A stretch of DNA of 64,000 nucleotides, from contig CAMTUG010000002.1 of assembly GCA_947084965.1 (NCBI GenBank), positions 79,434 through 143,433 on the forward strand, given 5' to 3'. Numbering within the stretch: the stretch's first letter is position 1; the number at the start of each line of letters is the position of its first letter. Shown in pieces: positions 8,810 through 50,885 of this stretch. A program made the position numbers and the translations under genes. The stretch is from an uncultured Parcubacteria group bacterium. GTDB lineage: Bacteria > Patescibacteriota > Patescibacteriia > UBA9934 > CAMTUG01. Below the pieces are notes generated by a model. It was not told the DNA's origin and searched no databases. It was given only the letters and a program-made list of their open reading frames with translations.

Positions 8810-8927
8810 AAACTCGAAATGTGAAATCCGAAATTCGAAATAAATTTGAATCGGAGATAGAAAATGTTCAAATTCGAATTTTTCGGTTTCCGGTTGTTTC
8901 GAATTTTGGATTTCGGATTTAATACGT
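8810..8927. repeat. TTCGAAAT-rich inverted-repeat element, copy B
   Basis: gaaatccgaaattcgaaataaatttgaa ... ttcaaattcgaatttttcgg ... tttcgaattttggatttcggattt; the arms are reverse complements. Confidence 0.6.
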
Positions 8928-9722
8928 ATGGCGATGACTAAAACAACAGAAGAGATTGATGCGATTCGCGAAGGCGGGGCGTTATTGTCGCGTTCGTTGC
9001 AAACGGCGATCGATGCGGCCAAGCAAGGGGTGACACTGCGTCAGCTCGATAAGATTGCGGAAGAGGCGATTCGTGCCGGTGGAGGAACGCCGTCGTTTTT
9101 GGGATACAAATCGCGCAGTAGCGACGAAGGATTTCCTTCCACCGTTTGCATTTCGGTCAACGACGAAGTCGTTCATGGGTCGGGCGCACGCGATGTTGTT
9201 TTGAAAAATGGAGATCTCCTCGGACTCGATATCGGCTGTTGGTACAAAGGATTGTGCACGGACATGGCGGTGACGATTCCGGTCGGAGGGTTCAAGGCGA
9301 TCCCGGACAAGCACAAAGAGTTGTTAACGGTGACGCGGGCATCGATGATGGCTGGGATTGAGGTCGCACGTGTTGGTGGAGATATCAAAGATATTTCTCG
9401 GGCGATCGAAGAATACGTTCGACCGTTTAAGTTTGGGGTTGTCCGGGCATTAGTCGGACATGGGGTAGGGCACAAAGTTCACGAAGATCCGCACGTGCCG
9501 AATTTTATTTCGAACCAATTTCCTTCTGTGCCGATTCAGAGCGGAATGGTGTTGGCGATTGAGCCGATGCTGACGCTTGGCGGCTGGCAGGTAGAAACAG
9601 GGGATGACGGTTGGACGATCAAGACGGTCGATGGCTCACTCGGCGCGCATTTTGAGTTAACAATTGCGGTGACAAAGGATGGGGTGGAGATTTTGACCCC
9701 TCCGCCAAATGTGGGGTTTTAA
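8928..9722 (+). CDS. map: Methionine aminopeptidase type I
   Basis: pita-bread metalloprotease motifs ...DIGCWYKGLCTDMAVT...VGHGVGHKVHEDP... Confidence 0.9.
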   Translation: MAMTKTTEEIDAIREGGALLSRSLQTAIDAAKQGVTLRQLDKIAEEAIRAGGGTPSFLGYKSRSSDEGFPSTVCISVNDEVVHGSGARDVVLKNGDLLGLDIGCWYKGLCTDMAVTIPVGGFKAIPDKHKELLTVTRASMMAGIEVARVGGDIKDISRAIEEYVRPFKFGVVRALVGHGVGHKVHEDPHVPNFISNQFPSVPIQSGMVLAIEPMLTLGGWQVETGDDGWTIKTVDGSLGAHFELTIAVTKDGVEILTPPPNVGF

Positions 9723-9840
9723 ATTCGAAATACGAAATCCGAAATTCGAAACAAATTCAAAGTGGAAACAGGAAGTTTGCAAACTTTCCTTTTCCTATTT
9801 CTGATTGTTTCGAATCTCGACATTCGAATTTAGAGTTTCT
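9723..9840. repeat. TTCGAAAT-rich inverted-repeat element, copy C; contains perfect palindrome AAGTTTGCAAACTT
   Basis: aaattcgaaatacgaaatccgaaattcgaaacaa ... ggaagtttgcaaactttcc ... ttgtttcgaatctcgacattcgaattt. Confidence 0.6.
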
Positions 9841-10233
9841 ATGCGCTTACTAGGAATTGATTACGGACTAAAAAAGATTGGCCTCGCCATCGGTGACGAC
9901 GAAGCAGGCGTCGCCGCTCCGTTAGAGGTGATTAGAAATGATGGAGAGATGACGACGGAGCTTCTGGCTAAGCGTATTCGTGACGAAGAGATCGATGCAG
10001 TTGTTTGTGGGGCGCCCCTTTCACAGGGTGGACATCACTCGAGCGATCAACTCGATAAAACTCGCGCCTTCATGGAGTCGCTTCGGAAGCAGGTGACCAT
10101 TCCGGTGTACGAGGAGGATGAGAGTTACACCACCAAAGAAAGTATTCGCATCGCGCGCGAGGAAAAATCTGGGATCGACGAAGATGCGCTGGCGGCATCC
10201 CTAATTTTGCAACAGTTTTTGAACCGCACCTAA
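9841..10233 (+). CDS. ruvX: YqgF/RuvX-like putative pre-16S rRNA nuclease / Holliday junction resolvase-like
   Basis: MRLLGIDYGLKKIGLAIGDDEAGVAAPLEVI... RNase H-like YqgF signature. Confidence 0.8.
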   Translation: MRLLGIDYGLKKIGLAIGDDEAGVAAPLEVIRNDGEMTTELLAKRIRDEEIDAVVCGAPLSQGGHHSSDQLDKTRAFMESLRKQVTIPVYEEDESYTTKESIRIAREEKSGIDEDALAASLILQQFLNRT

Positions 10234-10240
10234 AAGCAAC

Positions 10241-10290
10241 GACCACCCCCGAGGAGTAGCGACGAGAGGGTCGCTGCATGGGGGTGGTCT
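10241..10290. terminator. GC-rich hairpin element (CGACCACCCCC ... GGGGGTGGTC) between convergent genes; member of a repeat family
   Basis: cgaccacccccgaggagtagcgacgagagggtcgctgcatgggggtggtc; ~40 nt of it recurs reverse-complemented at 50431-50480 and, related, at 48822-48882. Confidence 0.5.
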
Positions 10291-10304: not shown

Positions 10305-11273
10305 CTACTCGTCGTAGTAGTCGTCGGGGTACTCGTGGTCGGATGGTTCAAGGACCCCGTCTTCATAGCCGGTGCCGTCTTCGTCCTCCTTCGGCGGGAC
10401 GATCGGGAGGGCCTGGTCCTCGAAGACGACGATCCGGTCGTGGGCGTTCCGCTGGCCGGGCTTCTGCTCGCCGCGCCGGAAGGCGAGGGAGTAGGGCCCG
10501 ACCGAGGCGAAGACGAACATGTCCGGGTGGCGGGTCCGCTCGTTGCGGCCGACCGTGAGGTCGATCGCCGAGGCGCCGCTGCCGCTGTAGACCACGAGCG
10601 TCTCGCCGGGGAGCGGCACCACGCGGTGGCCGATGAACTCGCCGACGCGCTGGAAGTAGCTCCTGGGCCCGTGGATGTTTTCGACCCGCTCGCCGAGCCG
10701 CTCCTTGCTCCCGTTGCTGAAGACCCAGTGGTCGCGGGTCCACGGCTTCAGGGTGAGGGCCTGCTCCCACTCGACGGTCTCGCAGCCGAGGTAGTCGAGC
10801 TTGTTGAGCGCCAGCTTCATCTCCACCCCCTTCGCGGGGTCGGCGAAGGTGATGGTGACGATGGGGGTCTTGTTGCGGTCGATCCAGCCCTGCTTCACGG
10901 TCAGCGTCACGCCCTCCTTCGGGGTGAGGGTGATGACCTCGCCGTCGAGCTTGGCGCCGAAGGGCTCGCCATAGCGGACCGCGTCCTGCGCCCGACTGGA
11001 CTCGAATCGGTCGTTGTTGAACCGGTCGAAGTAGCCGCCGGGCCGGGGGAGGTAGACCCCGAGGCAGGACCCGAGCACCCGTTCGAGCTCGCTCCAGTTC
11101 TCGTTGGCTTCGAGCGCCATGCGGATCCCGCAGGCGACCATTCGGTGGTCGGTCCCGATCCCGACCCCGCGACCGTAGGGGTCGTAGATGTAGGTCGTGC
11201 TGACGGGCCGGCGGAAGCCGATGATCTGCTTCATGGACATCGGAAAATCCTCCTCTTCACGTGCGGAGTGCAC
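10305..11273 (-). CDS. Hypothetical protein in a strongly GC-rich, GC3-biased island (possible start at 11240, MSMKQ)
   Basis: 322 aa ORF; visibly higher GC than flanking ruvX/recO; acidic C-terminal tail; own TTGACA-N18-TAATCT promoter upstream. Confidence 0.6.
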   Translation of the reverse strand: MHSAREEEDFPMSMKQIIGFRRPVSTTYIYDPYGRGVGIGTDHRMVACGIRMALEANENWSELERVLGSCLGVYLPRPGGYFDRFNNDRFESSRAQDAVRYGEPFGAKLDGEVITLTPKEGVTLTVKQGWIDRNKTPIVTITFADPAKGVEMKLALNKLDYLGCETVEWEQALTLKPWTRDHWVFSNGSKERLGERVENIHGPRSYFQRVGEFIGHRVVPLPGETLVVYSGSGASAIDLTVGRNERTRHPDMFVFASVGPYSLAFRRGEQKPGQRNAHDRIVVFEDQALPIVPPKEDEDGTGYEDGVLEPSDHEYPDDYYDE

Positions 11274-11323
11274 GGTGGTGCTTCTCGCGCTTCATGCGCG
11301 GAAGTGGCCTAGATTAGCATCAA

Positions 11324-11351
11324 AAGCCGATTCTGTCAAGACAGAATCGGC
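11324..11351. promoter_or_regulatory. Perfect 13-2-13 palindrome overlapping the -35 box of the minus-strand promoter, in the divergent recO intergenic region
   Basis: agccgattctgtc aa gacagaatcggct; TGTCAA (=TTGACA on minus) lies in the right arm. Confidence 0.4.
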
Positions 11352-25047: not shown

Positions 25048-25100
25048 TTGCAATATTTAAAGCGGTTCGGTAAGGTGGGGCGGCCCAACCAGGAGTCCAC

Positions 25101-25997
25101 ATGTCCGACCCTTTCCGCATCATCCAGTTCGGTCCCCGTCACGGACAGTCGAATGGATCGCCCGTCCTGATCGAGGTCGCCCACGGGGCTACGACCATGC
25201 TCCAGTACGCCCGCACCCTCGGGCTCCTCCGGGGTTTGTACCCTACCAGCCTGCTCGACTTCTTCCTGGTCAACACGGACCAGGGGGCGCCTGAGCTGGC
25301 CATGGAGATCGGCAGGCAGATCGTCGACGCCCATCCGGGGCGGTCGGTGACGATCATGATCGCCGAGGTTCCCCGGACGTTCATCGACTTCAACCGGATC
25401 CCTGGCGTGACGGCCGAGGCGGCCAAGGCCGGTGGGGTCACCCCCGGGCTCCAGCCCTGGGTCACGAACCCGGACGACGTCAAGCTCCTGACCGGGTTCC
25501 ACCGCGCCTACCACGCGAAGCTCGGGCCGATCGTTGATCAGGTCTGCGAAGCGGGTGGCACGATGCTCGCGCTTCACACCTACGCCCCGCGGTCGGTCGA
25601 CGTCGAAGCTATCGACGAGCGGATCGGGGAGCGCATGCGCGAGGCTTGGTCCGGCAACGTCGAGCGCTGGCCCCTGCGTCCGGAGATCGATCTCATCGGT
25701 CGCGACAAGTGGGAAGGGGATGACCGGCCGTGGATGGTCGTGCCCGCCGTTCTCACCCGTCTGCGCGCTGAGTTCCTGCCGCTCGAACTCGAGGTTGCAG
25801 ACTCCGTGTCCTACCATCTGGCGGACGTCACCATGGCGCGTCAGTACCGCGACCGCTACCCCGAGCAGGTCATCTGCCTCGAGGTGCGTCGCGATCTGCT
25901 CACGGGGTGGTGGCTACCCTTCGCGCAGATGATCCCTGATTCGTTTCGGATCCGGCGCATCGGCGAGGCTCTTGCCCACGCCCTGTTTCTCTTCTAG
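25101..25997 (+). CDS. Hypothetical protein in a GC-rich island (possible amidohydrolase-like; unverified)
   Basis: 298 aa, visibly GC-rich with strong GC3 bias; followed by a perfect 10-bp hairpin ggccaccc-ttactc-gggtggcc. Confidence 0.55.
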   Translation: MSDPFRIIQFGPRHGQSNGSPVLIEVAHGATTMLQYARTLGLLRGLYPTSLLDFFLVNTDQGAPELAMEIGRQIVDAHPGRSVTIMIAEVPRTFIDFNRIPGVTAEAAKAGGVTPGLQPWVTNPDDVKLLTGFHRAYHAKLGPIVDQVCEAGGTMLALHTYAPRSVDVEAIDERIGERMREAWSGNVERWPLRPEIDLIGRDKWEGDDRPWMVVPAVLTRLRAEFLPLELEVADSVSYHLADVTMARQYRDRYPEQVICLEVRRDLLTGWWLPFAQMIPDSFRIRRIGEALAHALFLF

Positions 25998-26054
25998 ATT
26001 CGGTCGCTCCTTCGCGATCGCCCAAGGCCACCCTTACTCGGGTGGCCTTCGACG

Positions 26055-27462: not shown

Positions 27463-27657
27463 ATGCGGCAGTATCCTAGCAAACCCTTGATGTTTTTTCA
27501 AGGAATTGCTATTATCACGTCACAAAAGTTCTGCGGATGCCTCTAAAAAAGGCATATTCAAGGCGCGGGGAGACGGCGAACGAGGCGTACCAAAATGTAC
27601 GTCGAGGAGCCGTCGGGGCCCCGCAACGCAGAAGATGCCATTTTTAGGGGCATACGA

Positions 27658-31973: not shown

Positions 31974-32037
31974 AGCGTATCTATCTAACGTAGTGAAATT
32001 TAAGCTTTTTGTAAAGCAGGACCCCCACGTGACGTAC

Positions 32038-32628
32038 TCACGCGGGGGTTCCGTTCTTGATGATCCCGGCTTCGACCAGGACCTTGTAGAGGTTGGGGGA
32101 GATGGGAAGACCATCTTCGGTCTGACCCGCCTTGATCTCGGTGGTAGTGACGAATCGCGCCATGGGGGACTTGGCTGCCTCCTGTTCGATGCGTCGCATG
32201 ACCTGTCGGGCCAGGGACATGACCACGAGGACGTAGAAGTAGATCGCCAGCTGACCACGGCTGTCCATCTCCTGGTGCGGAAGGGGAGGGGTCTTTCTCT
32301 GGATCTTCATCTTTGTCTTGTGGAGTTCCCGATCAATGAGTCCGTAGGCGACCAGCTCCTGGTTCAAGCGGCGGCGGATGGCACGGTCGCGGGACTCTCG
32401 GCCTACCATCGGTTGGGAGAACCCGGCGATCGTCGCTGCCATCGCCCGAGCGGTCGTGGCCTCGACGTGGACCGGCTCACCGTTGCTGTTCCCGTCGGCA
32501 GAGGTGTAGTGCACCCGCCCTCCTGGAAGGAAGAACCAGGCGCGCGGGGCTCTGTGCATGAGCAGGAGGAAGCGCCCCTGCTCGTCACGGATGATGGCTT
32601 TCACCATCAACTTCATCATGACGGACAT
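32038..32628 (-). CDS. Hypothetical NUDIX-like protein in a GC-rich island
   Basis: AIIRDEQGRFLLLMHRAPRAWFFLPGG resembles a NUDIX N-terminus, but no canonical REx2EE box; visibly higher GC than its neighbours. Confidence 0.45.
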   Translation of the reverse strand: MSVMMKLMVKAIIRDEQGRFLLLMHRAPRAWFFLPGGRVHYTSADGNSNGEPVHVEATTARAMAATIAGFSQPMVGRESRDRAIRRRLNQELVAYGLIDRELHKTKMKIQRKTPPLPHQEMDSRGQLAIYFYVLVVMSLARQVMRRIEQEAAKSPMARFVTTTEIKAGQTEDGLPISPNLYKVLVEAGIIKNGTPA

Positions 32629-32845
32629 GGAGGACTCCTGGGTTGGTCAGTCGCCACAATCATGGCAGATCTGCACAAAAAGTCAACGGTTGCCCCGGGA
32701 GGCAGTTTTCGATATACTGGAGGCATAATCATCAACTATGCCTCCAAGGAATGTTCGTGCGGGGAGAGCCGGTGGCGACCCAGGTGTGGGTGGCAGAGGC
32801 GGCCGCGATCGCAGCGTTGCTGCTCGAAGGAATGCAGAACCTGCC

Positions 32846-48192: not shown

Positions 48193-48260
48193 GAGTTTAT
48201 AGGGAAAGAACGGCCTAAATGGCCGTTCTTTTGTTTTGTGGCATAAAGAGCCCAACATAA

Positions 48261-48289
48261 TTGACAAAGTTACATTTTTATGCTATTTT
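48261..48289 (+). promoter_or_regulatory. Sigma70-like promoter TTGACA-N17-TATTTT (shared type with 49019-49047)
   Basis: ttgacaaagttacatttttatgctatttt; RBS aaggaggaagg before ATG 48321. Confidence 0.45.
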
Positions 48290-48320
48290 TCTTGACCACC
48301 AAGGCAAGGAGGAAGGAAAG

Positions 48321-48818
48321 ATGCGTCGTTATTTTATCGGCATCGGCGGTCTCATGGCCGCTGGATTTGCAGGGATCGCCGTGGCGATGGTTTCTGTCCA
48401 CAGACAGTGGCAGGCAGACGTCGCGGCGGCTGAGGCGGCCCAAGCTGAGTGGGTCGCTGAGCGGGCGGAGATCGCCGAGCGCGAAGCGGTCGCGCGCAAG
48501 GCCGAGGAGCAGAAGGAGCTCATCGGCGAGGCGATGGCCAACCTGACGGGGGGCTGGAACCCCTGGATCGTCGACTCGATCGACCAGGTCCAGAACCCCG
48601 AGTTCGTCGCGCTCTTCCTGGTCGTCCGCGCCCAGCGGGACGAGCAGAGCAAGGCGCTCGACGAGCTGCTCGAGAAGGAGCCGTGCGCCAGCCGGTTCGA
48701 GAAGCCGGGCTACAAGGAGCGCTGCGACAAGCTCTTCGACGCCCTGTCCCTCGAGACCTTCGCCCCGATCAAGCCCAACCTCGACCGCATCCAGGAGATC
48801 GCCAACACGTACAACTAG
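48321..48818 (+). CDS. GC-rich membrane-anchored coiled-coil hypothetical protein
   Basis: MRRYFIGIGGLMAAGFAGIAVAMV TM then Ala/Glu-rich helix; visibly GC-rich; ORF-track start 48261 is the -35 box. Confidence 0.55.
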   Translation: MRRYFIGIGGLMAAGFAGIAVAMVSVHRQWQADVAAAEAAQAEWVAERAEIAEREAVARKAEEQKELIGEAMANLTGGWNPWIVDSIDQVQNPEFVALFLVVRAQRDEQSKALDELLEKEPCASRFEKPGYKERCDKLFDALSLETFAPIKPNLDRIQEIANTYN

Positions 48819-48821
48819 TAC

Positions 48822-48882
48822 GACCACCCCCAGCGGCCACCCTCGTCGCACTCTCGGGGGTGGTCGCTGCATTTCATGCAGC
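48822..48882 (+). terminator. GC-rich tandem hairpins (GACCACCCCC...GGGGGTGGTC then GCTGCATTTCATGCAGC), repeat family
   Basis: cgaccacccccagcggccaccctcgtcgcactctcgggggtggtcgctgcatttcatgcagc. Confidence 0.5.
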
Positions 48883-48944
48883 CACAGGGGCTTCCGCCCC
48901 TCTGGTCGTCGCTCCGCTCCTGTCACCCTCAGCAGGTAAGGGGA

Positions 48945-48970
48945 GATATCTCCCCTTACCATCCCCTCCG
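48945..48970. repeat. Perfect 26-bp palindrome
   Basis: ggtaaggggagatatctccccttacc. Confidence 0.5.
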
Positions 48971-49018
48971 CCCACGCTTCGCGTGGTCGCTGCATTTTAG
49001 CTACTTTAGCCACGAACG

Positions 49019-49047
49019 TTGACAAAGTCGACTTTTTGTGTTATTTT
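49019..49047 (+). promoter_or_regulatory. Sigma70-like promoter TTGACA-N17-TATTTT, near-identical to 48261-48289
   Basis: ttgacaaagtcgactttttgtgttatttt; preceded by a partial copy gtggtcgctgcatttta of the 3' repeat. Confidence 0.45.
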
Positions 49048-49164
49048 CGGCCCTCTGGCAATCCCGCCAGATGTGTCGACCGGATTGGGAACGGGGTTTT
49101 CCGTTGCCCTTTTCGCTCGGCCCTTACACCGTTTGGATGCAATAGGCCAAACGCTGGAGGTCTC

Positions 49165-50394
49165 GTGTTTCTGCCCACTTGGATCCCCTGGTGGATCGGC
49201 TTTCTGCAGCCGGCTTCGAAGCTGCAGCGCATGATGGAAGCGTGTTCCATCGTCATCATGGCCGTGTTCACGGCCTGGTGCGTCATCAACAACGTGGAGC
49301 CCACGGTCACCGAGCAGGACCAGGCCCGTCGCGACGCGGACGTCATCGCCGTCCAGTACGAGGCCCGCTGCAGCATTTACACCCTCGCCGAGATGGGCTC
49401 TTGGCCGTCCAAGCCGTGGACGAAGGCCAAGAACATGTGGGGCAGCAACCCCGGGTGTGGCGCCCTCGGCCAGAACTTCCTCCACTTCTTCACCAAGGGC
49501 TACCCCGACGGTGGGGGACGTTCGCCGGCCGTCTTCTGGTGGAACAACGATCGCCCGGCGGTCGCGCTCTACCAGGAGTGGTGGAAGGAGCGTGAGCGGC
49601 ACTACGAGCGGGAATGGGACAAGAAGGAAAAGGCCGAGCTCGCCAAGGCGGACGCCGCGTTCGAAGCGGCGCTCGTGAAGGCCGACGAGAGTGAGCGGTT
49701 TCAGCTCGTGCTCATCGAGACCGCCAAGCGCACCGTCGGCTGGTGGGTCGGCGGGCTCGTCGTGATCGCCATGATCGTGGGGTGCATCTACGGGTGGCTT
49801 CGCATGATCAACCACCGCTTCATCACGCACTGCGGTGTCTGGGCTGGCGGCGACTGCCTGGCCGAGGTGGTGATCCCGCGCTACCCGTTCGGGCGGCCGA
49901 AGATCACCGGTCGCTTCGACAAGGCCTGGAGGGCGGTCGTCAACTTCCGCGGCCAGACGGTGCTCGCCGACCGCCTGGGCAACCGGGTCGTCATCGGAGA
50001 GAACGGCACCTCCACGACGATCAACATGATCCTGCACCCGAGCCTCCCCGCCTACCTGAAGGCGGTCGTCAATCAGTCCAGCACCCAGGCGGTGACCATC
50101 CGTCAGCAGGGGGAGCAGATCGCCCAGCTCGAGGCGGCGGCGCAGAAGCAGAAGCAGTGGATCGACTGGTACCGCGATGAGATCCGGGCGCGCAACCGCC
50201 TGCTCGTCCTCGCCATCGAAGGGATGCGGAAGTCGAAGGACTTCCAGCGTCTCGGCGTGGTCCAGACGATGCGCGAGCGCCTGCTCGAGCGGATGCGCGA
50301 AGAGCTCAAGGACGACAAGGAGCTCTGGGCCGCGATCGGGGAGCGCGAGGAGGAAGAGGGGCTGTCCGTCAAGCCCCCGACCGAAGACAACTAG
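49165..50394 (+). CDS. GC-rich hypothetical membrane-anchored protein (GTG start after GGAGG)
   Basis: ctggaggtctcGTG; N-terminal hydrophobic segments, central TM, C-terminal coiled coil; visibly GC-rich; ORF-track start 49036 lies in the 5' UTR. Confidence 0.5.
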   Translation: MFLPTWIPWWIGFLQPASKLQRMMEACSIVIMAVFTAWCVINNVEPTVTEQDQARRDADVIAVQYEARCSIYTLAEMGSWPSKPWTKAKNMWGSNPGCGALGQNFLHFFTKGYPDGGGRSPAVFWWNNDRPAVALYQEWWKERERHYEREWDKKEKAELAKADAAFEAALVKADESERFQLVLIETAKRTVGWWVGGLVVIAMIVGCIYGWLRMINHRFITHCGVWAGGDCLAEVVIPRYPFGRPKITGRFDKAWRAVVNFRGQTVLADRLGNRVVIGENGTSTTINMILHPSLPAYLKAVVNQSSTQAVTIRQQGEQIAQLEAAAQKQKQWIDWYRDEIRARNRLLVLAIEGMRKSKDFQRLGVVQTMRERLLERMREELKDDKELWAAIGEREEEEGLSVKPPTEDN

Positions 50395-50430
50395 GCGACC
50401 GTACGGGTCGCCCCTAGACCGACCATCCCC

Positions 50431-50480
50431 AAGCAGCGATCATCCTCGTCGCTACTCCTCGGGGGTGGTCGTTTGCATTT
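50431..50480 (+). repeat. Conserved 3' element (reverse-complement match to 10241-10290)
   Basis: aagcagcgatcatcctcgtcgctactcctcgggggtggtcgtttgcattt. Confidence 0.5.
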
Positions 50481-50647
50481 TTAGGATCGGCCGCGAAATT
50501 CGTGATCTTTCGGCTTGCGGGCCCCTGCCACCTCTTCGGCGTACGTTTTTGGTACGCCTCAGAGGATGGCATCCCGCGCGCCGAAATCTCATCGAATTTG
50601 GCGACCGATCGGCTAGGAAGTGAAGGTGCTTGAAAATTAAACTGTCG

Positions 50648-50718
50648 CAAAGTGGAAGTACACAGGGTTCATTTTGTACTAACTTTAGTAAAAACTGATG
50701 TCTGTGTACTTCCACTTT
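50648..50718. repeat. 18-bp perfect inverted repeat with ~32-nt AT-rich loop upstream of rpsU
   Basis: caaagtggaagtacacag ... ctgtgtacttccactttg. Confidence 0.4.
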
Positions 50719-50885
50719 GGGGAAGTTGTATTTTTGAGGCGCTCAACCTTTAAAGGCCATGAATTAACCACGCGGCCGGAGCCTGCGACTACTGTGAATT
50801 ATCTCTATTATAAGGGACCCTCCGTCCCTATTGACCTTTTTAAACCTAATTGATACTCTTTTCGCACTCGAAAGAGATGAAATAT

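Follow-up and report, generated by a model that had tools for sequence, protein, structure and literature searches.

Phage morons, a concept that goes back to Hendrix and Juhala, are said to be units of promoter, open reading frame (ORF) and terminator lodged between adjacent phage genes, from which they deviate in base composition. In Neisseria, the minimal mobile elements (MMEs) are variable cassettes held between conserved flanks, which are exchanged by transformation and homologous recombination. An arrangement recalling both was found in a 64-kb stretch of an Uhrbacteria-like Patescibacteria chromosome (contig CAMTUG010000002.1; 53.8% GC), hereafter the window, in which five GC-rich monocistronic units, designated G1 to G5, lie between housekeeping genes, and in which G1, G4 and G5 have homologous promoters and a common hairpin-forming 3′ element. 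These units were read as moron-like autonomous single-gene expression cassettes, drawn from a GC-rich pool that circulates within Patescibacteria and placed at housekeeping junctions, a reading to which we give about an even chance. Little is understood of the ways in which Patescibacteria, whose genomes are tiny and streamlined, acquire accessory functions; the architecture offered here is that of self-sufficient one-gene units with common start and stop modules, which would be set between essential genes without disturbing them.

The likeness to morons lies in the predicted promoter and hairpin around a single ORF, in the position of the cassettes between genes that are adjacent in relatives, in a deviant GC content at third codon positions (GC3; z = 4.5-7.5) and in an accessory or orphan cargo. 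However, the chromosome in which the cassettes reside is a cellular one, their neighbours include genes for ribosomal proteins, tRNA synthetases and repair, and their products gave no significant PHROG match; moreover, unrelated cassettes carry homologous promoter and 3′ modules, and one cargo family recurs, GC-rich in 4/4 genomes. As in the Neisseria MMEs, a single junction (hisS-rpsU) was found in three states, either empty, or occupied by three AT-rich ORFs, or by G4 and G5, with no recombinase found linked to the units and with a competence gene, dprA, present in the window. Unlike in MMEs, one cassette family is also seen at non-homologous junctions, and MMEs are marked neither by a strong, persistent offset in GC nor by a shared hairpin. 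Islets of horizontal gene transfer (HGT) and moron-type architectures are already known, and what is new here is the repeat together with a persistent GC offset in a phylum-restricted family; the literature offers general surveys of HGT, and no account of such cassettes was found in it.

GC-rich units at housekeeping junctions

The GC content of the five units ranges from 0.62 to 0.67 and their GC3 from 0.81 to 0.95, against a host GC3 of 0.585±0.049 with a maximum of 0.665 (37 host ORFs). The initial annotation of this DNA had singled out three GC-rich genes, G4 and G5 among them with a strong GC3 bias; the statistics confirmed the deviation of all three and raised the count to five by the addition of G2 and G3 (Table 1). 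Codon usage is mutually similar among the five (r 0.71-0.93; 0.89-0.93 for G1, G4 and G5) and correlates with that of the host only at 0.38-0.57. By codon position, the GC content of the cassettes is 0.61-0.69, 0.40-0.47 and 0.81-0.95, with more C than G at the third, compared with 0.58, 0.43 and 0.58 in the pooled host genes. All five units are found between housekeeping genes (the neighbours are map, ruvX, recO, asnS, macB, relA, topA, hisS and rpsU), whose promoters and terminators were left intact. The scope of these results is one 64-kb window of the source genome, five copies of the 3′ element in all and four genomic contexts of the G1 family.

The window being a metagenome-assembled contig, it was considered whether high-GC reads had been joined to Patescibacteria sequence during assembly or binning. 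The likelihood of such an artefact is close to nil: part of the window was recovered independently in the Logan assembly of run ERR3478686, in which hisS-G4-G5-rpsU is contiguous and identical, another sample (SRR28842990) holds a G1 orthologue in the same context, and the GC-rich DNA is divided among five islands set apart from one another, whose promoters are in each case precise and of the host type.

Table 1. Predicted features of the GC-rich units in the window (numbering from the first nucleotide of the window)
Feature	Coordinates	Strand	Details
3′ element copy C	10229-10289	-	nhmmer E 1e-13
G1, 311-aa GC-rich gene, acidic C-terminal tail	10305-11240	-	GC 0.675, GC3 0.955
G1 promoter (11339-11311, TTGACA-17-TAATCT) and 70-nt two-hairpin leader with GAAGAGGAGG ribosome-binding site at its end	11241-11339	-	homology
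G2 unit	25048-26048	+	weak promoter-like site 25048-25076; ORF 25101-25997; two GC-rich hairpins 26001-26048
G3 unit	32019-32686	-	promoter-like site 32686-32658; ORF 32628-32038; ACCCCCGCGTG/CACGTGGGGGT hairpin overlapping the stop codon
Intrinsic terminator after hisS, canonical, A/T-flanked	48204-48232	+	12-bp stem and T run; first feature of the hisS-rpsU block
G4 promoter module, TTGACA-17-TATTTT, TG before the -10 box	48261-48289	+	homology to G5 promoter
G4, 165-aa GC-rich ORF	48321-48818	+	GC 0.66, GC3 0.89
3′ element copy A	48822-48882	+	-36.1 kcal/mol, z -6.1; nhmmer E 1e-10
ORF-less GC-rich relic, three hairpins	48883-48999	+	fold z -5.35
Partial element copy D, GTGGTCGCTGCATTTTA	48983-48999	+	E 0.67, matching only model positions 45-64 (3′ part); just upstream of G5 promoter
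G5 promoter module, TTGACA-17-TATTTT	49019-49047	+	homology to G4 promoter
G5 5′ leader, GC-rich, 117 nt	49048-49164	+	-46.7 kcal/mol, z -1.7, structure not significant
G5, 409-aa GC-rich orphan	49165-50394	+	GC 0.66, GC3 0.92
3′ element copy B	50421-50485	+	z -4.9; nhmmer E 1e-13

Presence and absence of the units were observed by comparison with loci recovered from relatives (designated by L numbers). In the window, the hisS-rpsU junction is filled by a 2.64-kb block (48193-50831) that is absent from L077 and L081, and in which a terminator is followed by promoter, G4 and copy A of the 3′ element, by an ORF-less GC-rich relic ending in partial copy D, by promoter, G5 and copy B, and finally by two long hairpins. 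In L077/L078 and L081/L082 (HisS 74% identical), the hisS stop codon abuts the -35 box of rpsU, leaving the junction empty. In L079/L080 (HisS 79% identical, the nearest relative by this protein; locus of 43% GC), the same junction holds three unrelated ORFs of host-like composition. Since different cargo was found there in different lineages, the junction is a recurrent hotspot of insertion. The three ORFs of L079 (3822-5294; JGI 3300009031; identical in L080) would encode proteins of 258, 170 and 54 aa, are unannotated and share the low GC of their host. The junction between pth and dprA is empty in the window, with a gap of 18 nt, and filled in L101. The proposal that promoter, ORF and structured 3′ end act together as a cassette was supported, both by the empty hisS-rpsU junctions and by the occurrence of the G1 family at varied junctions.

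Promoter modules and the shared 3′ element

The promoters of G4 and G5, described beforehand as almost identical, agree at 23 of 29 positions, and their common pattern has two matches in the window against 0.00 expected from shuffles; the similarity continues upstream as far as an AGCC motif. The G1 promoter, which had been overlooked, is homologous to both, well past the consensus hexamers. The host promoter before tRNA-Met has only TTGACAAA in common with these cassette promoters.

The conserved GC-rich 3′ element had likewise been noticed behind G4 and G5 and, reverse-complemented, at a third site, which is the 3′ end of G1. Its GGGGGTGGTCGYTNGCAT motif occurs three times in the window, compared with 0.28 expected, and none of 100 shuffles reached that number. 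Three full copies (A, B and C) and one partial copy (D), each behind GC-rich DNA, were recognized; copy D had been noticed as well, and its existence was upheld, although it lies some 5 nt to the right of the position first given for it. The copies are 78-93% identical over about 60 nt, and positions 10238-10266 are complementary to 50445-50473 at 29/29 positions, which makes a perfect 29-mer common to copies B and C at a distance of 40 kb.

RNA folding of the element gave a nested two-stem hairpin (z -3.2 to -6.1; -31 to -46 kcal/mol for the folded segments), in which a 10-bp outer stem, GACCA(C/T)CCCC/GGGGGTGGTC, encloses a 5-6-bp inner stem around CGAC/GTCG, the loop of 24-30 nt with its nested stem being conserved and the tail reading GYT(T)GC(A)TTTT(T)AG. 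In copy A, the outer stem (48822-48831/48856-48865) encloses GCGGC/GTCGC and is followed by a small second hairpin, GCTGCAT-ttc-ATGCAGC. In copy B, the outer stem (50421-50430/50461-50470) includes one G-U pair, the inner stem is AGCGA/TCGCT and the tail GTTTGCATTTTTAGG; in copy C, the stems are 10280-10289/10241-10250 and AGCGAC/GTCGCT, and the tail, with its T run, runs into the convergent ruvX gene, whose TAA stop codon it overlaps. Covariation as a proof of the inner stem was dropped: the four copies represent shifted registers of one CGAC/GTCG core, with no clean compensatory change.

A profile built from the four full copies (those of the window and one from L100, described below) matched only these and partial copy D in the window and ten related loci, and exact occurrences of GGGGGTGGTC in the window are confined to the element. 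About 55 host genes of the window lack it, and hisS and rpsU end in ordinary A/T-flanked terminators. Because the element is confined to GC-rich genes, while host genes use A/T-flanked terminators, it is not a generic terminator in the window, and the REP-like or terminator family that the initial annotation had allowed for was not supported there. With repetitive extragenic palindromes (REP), bacterial interspersed mosaic elements (BIME) and Rho-independent terminators, the element shares its nature as a GC-rich extragenic hairpin at gene 3′ ends, a plausible role as terminator or mRNA stabiliser, and the use of one copy in common by the convergent G1 and ruvX. However, there are 3-4 copies per 64 kb, all at GC-rich genes, and no REP-associated tyrosine transposase (RAYT) was found in the window, on which grounds (low copy number, link to GC-rich genes, no RAYT, all within the window) identity with a REP element was not supported. 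Its strong stems and its position would suit an intrinsic terminator, but from the canonical ones of the host genes it differs in its nested two-stem fold, its conserved loop and its offset T run.

Integron cassettes with their attC sites, including clusters of attC sites lacking integron-integrases (CALIN), come close in other respects: orphan ORFs are each followed by a conserved imperfect palindrome of ~60 nt in fixed orientation, and the hisS-rpsU block forms a short tandem array. However, RYYYAAC/GTTRRRY cores are missing from the element, whose 3′ flanks are GTTTGCA, GTTGCTT and GCTGCAT and whose 5′ flanks end in TAC, ACC and CAA before GACCA. Furthermore, the window yielded no intI, attI or Pc promoter, and the cassettes, each with its own TTGACA-17-TAnnnT, are dispersed through 40 kb. 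Identity with attC was not supported, in view of the absent core boxes, of 30 host ORFs without a recombinase match and of the cassettes' own promoters.

A wider form of this idea is that the hairpin, mainly its invariant 3′ half, would be the site of a recombinase encoded elsewhere, in the manner of attC or of IS110/IS200-type targets, and that capture at existing copies would leave half-sites upstream of promoters. Such a site-specific system is improbable in our judgement, but several observations fit it. Copies B and C are identical at 29/29 positions of the 3′ half and at only ~75% of the 5′ half; copy D, which is the 3′ half alone, immediately precedes the promoter of G5; and the 17 kb of L101 contain a lone GGGGGTGG / GGGGGTGGTT (L101:5873; 0.24 expected) ~70 nt upstream of the cassette promoter. 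In addition, the hisS-rpsU block may be seen as a tandem array A-relic/D-B in a single orientation, and orphan cargo proteins are typical of chromosomal integron cassettes. The invariant 3′ half and the half-copies upstream of promoters (D and L101:5873) thus hint, weakly, at a recombination-site role of the hairpin. However, a Pfam scan of 30 host ORFs of the window gave no match to an integrase, transposase or RAYT, no target-site duplications were seen around the units, attC cores are missing, each cassette has its own promoter, and G1-family cassettes of L101 and L102 carry hairpins whose sequences differ from the window element; five copies are, besides, too few for statistics. A reading of the motif as a DNA-uptake sequence was dropped, as it is not over-represented outside the element.

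The relation among the copies is itself informative. Copies B and C, paralogous within the window, are 88-93% identical and more alike than copy C and its orthologue in L100, which indicates copying or conversion inside the genome. The shared repeat is so far undescribed and is regarded as a lineage-specific 3′ module, whose role, judging from its predicted structure and position, would most likely be to stop transcripts, to protect mRNA 3′ ends and to shield the neighbours. With Rfam 15 at the gathering score, the window gave tRNAs only and no match for the element; at a relaxed threshold, the only match at the element was to rsmX, on the other strand and, with 21.3 bits, below the threshold of 56.

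An origin in an unrelated high-GC organism, for instance an actinobacterial host of an epibiont, had been suggested at the outset, in which case the hairpin would be a terminator or REP of the donor. As a hairpin with a weak T tail, the element may be likened to the terminators described in high-GC Actinobacteria; the GC3 and the mutually similar codon usage of the units would fit a single high-GC background, and the general hairpin pattern, GACCAYCCCC...GGGGGTGGTCG, occurs sporadically in high-GC genomes, with 75 scattered matches among 185,579 species genomes. However, none of these genomes has more than two matches, and none the loop sequence. The specific pattern of the element was absent from IMG/VR (0 matches), and the JGI metagenomes gave 12 chance matches without the 5′ arm; four matches of the general pattern in IMG/VR were not inspected. 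No donor genome carrying the repeat was found in the species genomes, IMG/VR or the JGI metagenomes, three collections from which the source genome itself is absent. Protein searches for high-GC relatives, which the suggestion called for, did not favour it either: G5 matched only itself in a word-indexed search of 5.8 billion proteins, and the G1 family is known from Patescibacteria only. Moreover, GC content at second codon positions (GC2) is not raised, and the promoters are host-type and mutually homologous. Direct transfer from such a donor is therefore improbable, and a pool inside Patescibacteria is preferred as the source. Two contigs (L040 and L059) of one high-GC Myxococcales metagenome-assembled genome (MAG), SOY_6_C_metabat_27, carry nested hairpins of the form GACCA(C/T)CCCC-GATCGCGA..GGCGATC-GGGGGTGGTCG, with a loop unrelated to that of the element; these are probably a REP-like family of that genome.

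The G1 family and the persistence of high GC

G1 had been delimited as 10305-11273 on the minus strand; its GC-richness and the position of the 3′ element stood, but translation probably starts not from the GTG at 11273 but from an ATG at 11240, which a GAGGAGG site precedes. An exact-sequence look-up with either candidate start codon gave no match, and a word-indexed homology search no homologue, whereas exhaustive HMMER searching recovered a family of 25 representatives, the best of them 49% identical. Since the word-indexed search missed this family, the orphan status of G5 holds at word-index level only. All three named members of the family ('Patescibacteria group bacterium') and all four recovered contexts belong to Patescibacteria, which does not agree with the actinobacterial or other high-GC donor. 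The family has conserved motifs (LG.R, PL.GE.LVVY, HP..VFASVG and DRIVVF.D..LPI.P) and no Pfam or PDB relative; a single-sequence AlphaFold model of G1 had a predicted local distance difference test score (pLDDT) of 34. The last motif is followed by a strongly acidic tail, which mostly ends in an aromatic residue (..DEY, ..EF, ..DDYYDE) and is, by analogy, reminiscent of protein-docking peptide tails.

The homologues lie in different surroundings. In L100, a relative with housekeeping proteins 63-85% identical (52% GC), the homologue (GC3 0.82; flanks 0.51-0.63) lies between RecO and RuvX with the strand layout of the window. In L101, an NCBI MAG of 43% GC, it is found between Pth and DprA (GC3 0.86; flanks 0.29-0.41), and in L102, from TARA (56% GC), between RecG and ThyA (GC3 0.89; flanks 0.49-0.67). 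Each has TTGACA-17-TAnnnT and a structured leader, at the end of which lies a ribosome-binding site of the GAAGAGG type; each also has a C-rich/G-rich hairpin with a T run behind it, and the leader in L101 has the same hairpin architecture as in the window. L100 also contains a clear orthologue of copy C, the T run of which overlaps the ruvX stop codon as in the window. The identity between the window and L100 is 83% in promoter plus leader and 80-89% in the 3′ element, compared with 63% at nucleotide level for the coding sequence and 48% for the protein.

From these features, a sequence of steps may be proposed for the cassettes. The source would be a gene pool of about 65% GC inside Patescibacteria, rather than an unrelated high-GC host. 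The sigma-70-type promoter module would make expression independent of the insertion site, leader and ribosome-binding site would drive translation, and the nested hairpin with its T run would end the transcript, protect its 3′ end and prevent read-through into adjacent essential genes, one hairpin possibly serving both convergent genes at G1/ruvX. Promoter and hairpin modules would be kept alike within the genome by copying or gene conversion, and insertion or replacement would most likely proceed by uptake of external DNA, followed by recombination of the general (homologous) or illegitimate type. This would be the simplest route, because a recombinase was not found beside the cassettes, whereas dprA is among the genes of the window. 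In a published survey, most of the HGT into Patescibacteria had its source within the phylum (PMC12455944), and an intra-Patescibacteria source pool agrees with it.

However, several findings weigh against this explanation. When the flanking genes of the window are compared with those of L100, a fraction of 0.55-0.69 of the four-fold sites at conserved residues differs, with ~0.74 expected at saturation, and despite these near-saturated synonymous sites the orthologous G1 pair keeps a GC3 of 0.95 and 0.82. A single ancestral import should by then have drifted to host composition, and neutral decay does not fit. GC2 of the cassettes is on a par with that of the host (ranges as above) and not raised, whereas, from the relation between genomic GC and codon positions attributed to Muto and Osawa, genes native to a genome of 65-70% GC would reportedly have a higher GC2. 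Searches of IMG/VR, of GenBank phages and of PLSDB with the proteins that were tried showed no GC-rich reservoir. As regards the hairpin, a T4-5 run starts 4-8 nt past the outer stem in copies B and C and is missing from copy A, so that it is not a textbook intrinsic terminator (a terminator scan at the element called only a sub-hairpin of copy B), and the perfect conservation of the 3′ half beside a divergent 5′ half is not explained by structure alone. The basis is, in addition, limited to 64 kb out of some 146 kb or more and to four G1-family contexts.

The same findings speak for another explanation, according to which these are long-standing resident genes of Patescibacteria, whose high GC is actively maintained by GC-biased gene conversion or by selection, such as for mRNA stability or for avoidance of AT-directed nucleases. 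G1 orthologues occupy the same RuvX|RecO junction with high GC3 at near-saturated synonymous sites; each of the four host genomes examined, with 43-56% GC, has a GC-rich member of the family, so that simple gene transfer is no sufficient explanation; GC2 is not elevated; and the family occurs in Patescibacteria only. However, the G4/G5 block is missing in two relatives, the G1 family sits at differing junctions across genomes, and G5 has no homologue (word-indexed search). The leaders, the hairpins and the ORF-less relic are GC-rich as well, which argues against pure codon selection, and the effects reported for GC-biased conversion in bacteria fall far short of what would lift GC3 from 0.35 to 0.86. 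Residence with maintained composition is considered unlikely.

Three options are left for the GC offset: the units may be replaced again and again from an unsampled GC-rich reservoir, conversion may be GC-biased at often-recombining loci, or composition may be under selection. A more speculative proposal, to which we also assign a low probability, is that of an unrecognised modular gene-cassette system, in which a dedicated GC-rich reservoir (an unsampled plasmid-like or viral replicon, or silent stores) would provide accessory or orphan genes, standard promoter and hairpin modules would place and replace these at intergenic junctions, the invariant 3′ half would act as recombination site, and frequent replacement or biased conversion would keep the family at ~65% GC. 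If an unsampled GC-rich replicon is the cause, the cassettes would point to a hidden mobile element of Patescibacteria; if biased conversion or selection is, they would make an unusually strong bacterial case. Under either cause, attempts to detect HGT or to deduce donors from GC content would mislead at such loci, and the inference of a 'host donor' fails here.

Other cargo, neighbouring genes and repeats

G2 and G3 broaden the range of the units. G2 codes for a 298-aa FGase-like protein (PF05013, a weak match of 31.4 bits; GC3 0.85), and G3, inserted upstream of relA/spoT, for a 196-aa protein (GC3 0.81) with a weak NUDIX match below the Pfam cut-off. Their proteins are unrelated, and their hairpins differ from the element of G1, G4 and G5 and from each other. 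However, G2 (25082-25100) and G3 (32629-32649, minus strand) have a common leader and ribosome-binding motif, CCAACC(C)AGGAGTCC(N2-3)ATG, so that the two may form a second class of cassettes, distinguished by a separate 5′ module.

The cargo proteins had no significant PHROG, PADLOC or NCBIfam match, those of the G1 family, G2 and G3 had no match in the PDB, and phage, plasmid and IMG/VR protein searches with G1, G2, G4 and G5 returned nothing. G4, for which no significant Pfam family was found either, is the sole member of its own 90%-identity cluster; as read from its sequence, a single hydrophobic segment lies near its N terminus, ahead of a helical region rich in charged residues. G5 is predicted to be mostly helical, with low confidence (single-sequence AlphaFold pLDDT 45). 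In L077 (180-1460), just after a tRNA gene, lies a GC-rich monocistronic gene of M23-peptidase type (GC3 0.88, against 0.71 for its host), unrelated to G1, with a hairpin of its own and a promoter, TTGACAtcggtcgttttttcaagTACATT, resembling those of the cassettes. This gene suggests that GC-rich monocistronic cassettes are common in the Uhrbacteria-like clade.

The window was placed in Candidatus Uhrbacteria / Patescibacteria by its HisS homologues, the nearest of which are 74-79% identical. It contains a ribosomal-protein operon, secY, adk, map, ruvX, recO, asnS, scpAB-like genes, macB and relA/spoT, as well as topA, dprA, pth, der, hisS, rpsU and genes for a pilin protein of a type IV secretion system (T4SS) and a 3,305-aa surface protein; another 2.3 kb beyond its edge added ribosomal operon only.

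Two further kinds of repeat were observed in the window. One is a second family of GC-rich imperfect hairpins of ~110-140 nt (fold z -6 to -12), with one member at 50478-50620, directly after copy B, and the other, in opposite orientation, at 27520-27656, between tRNA-Leu and tRNA-Met. Their common sequence reads GCGGG(G)CCCC...CGTAC(G/A)TTTT(T)GGTACGCCTC...CCCGCGC, with differences between their middle stems that appear compensatory; Rfam gave no match for the first and, in a scan at gathering threshold, none for the second. The DNA that separates the G5 cassette from the promoter of rpsU also includes a palindrome of ~115 nt, AT-rich and near-perfect (50625-50743; 50-nt arms, 80% complementary), which matched in Rfam only plant miRNA precursors below threshold, as a generic hairpin does. 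The other kind consists of AT-rich intergenic palindromic repeats of AAATTCGAAAT-type units (2893-2978, 8810-8921 and 9721-9838), which are unrelated to the GC-rich element and look like a family of the host akin to REPs or to miniature inverted-repeat transposable elements (MITEs).

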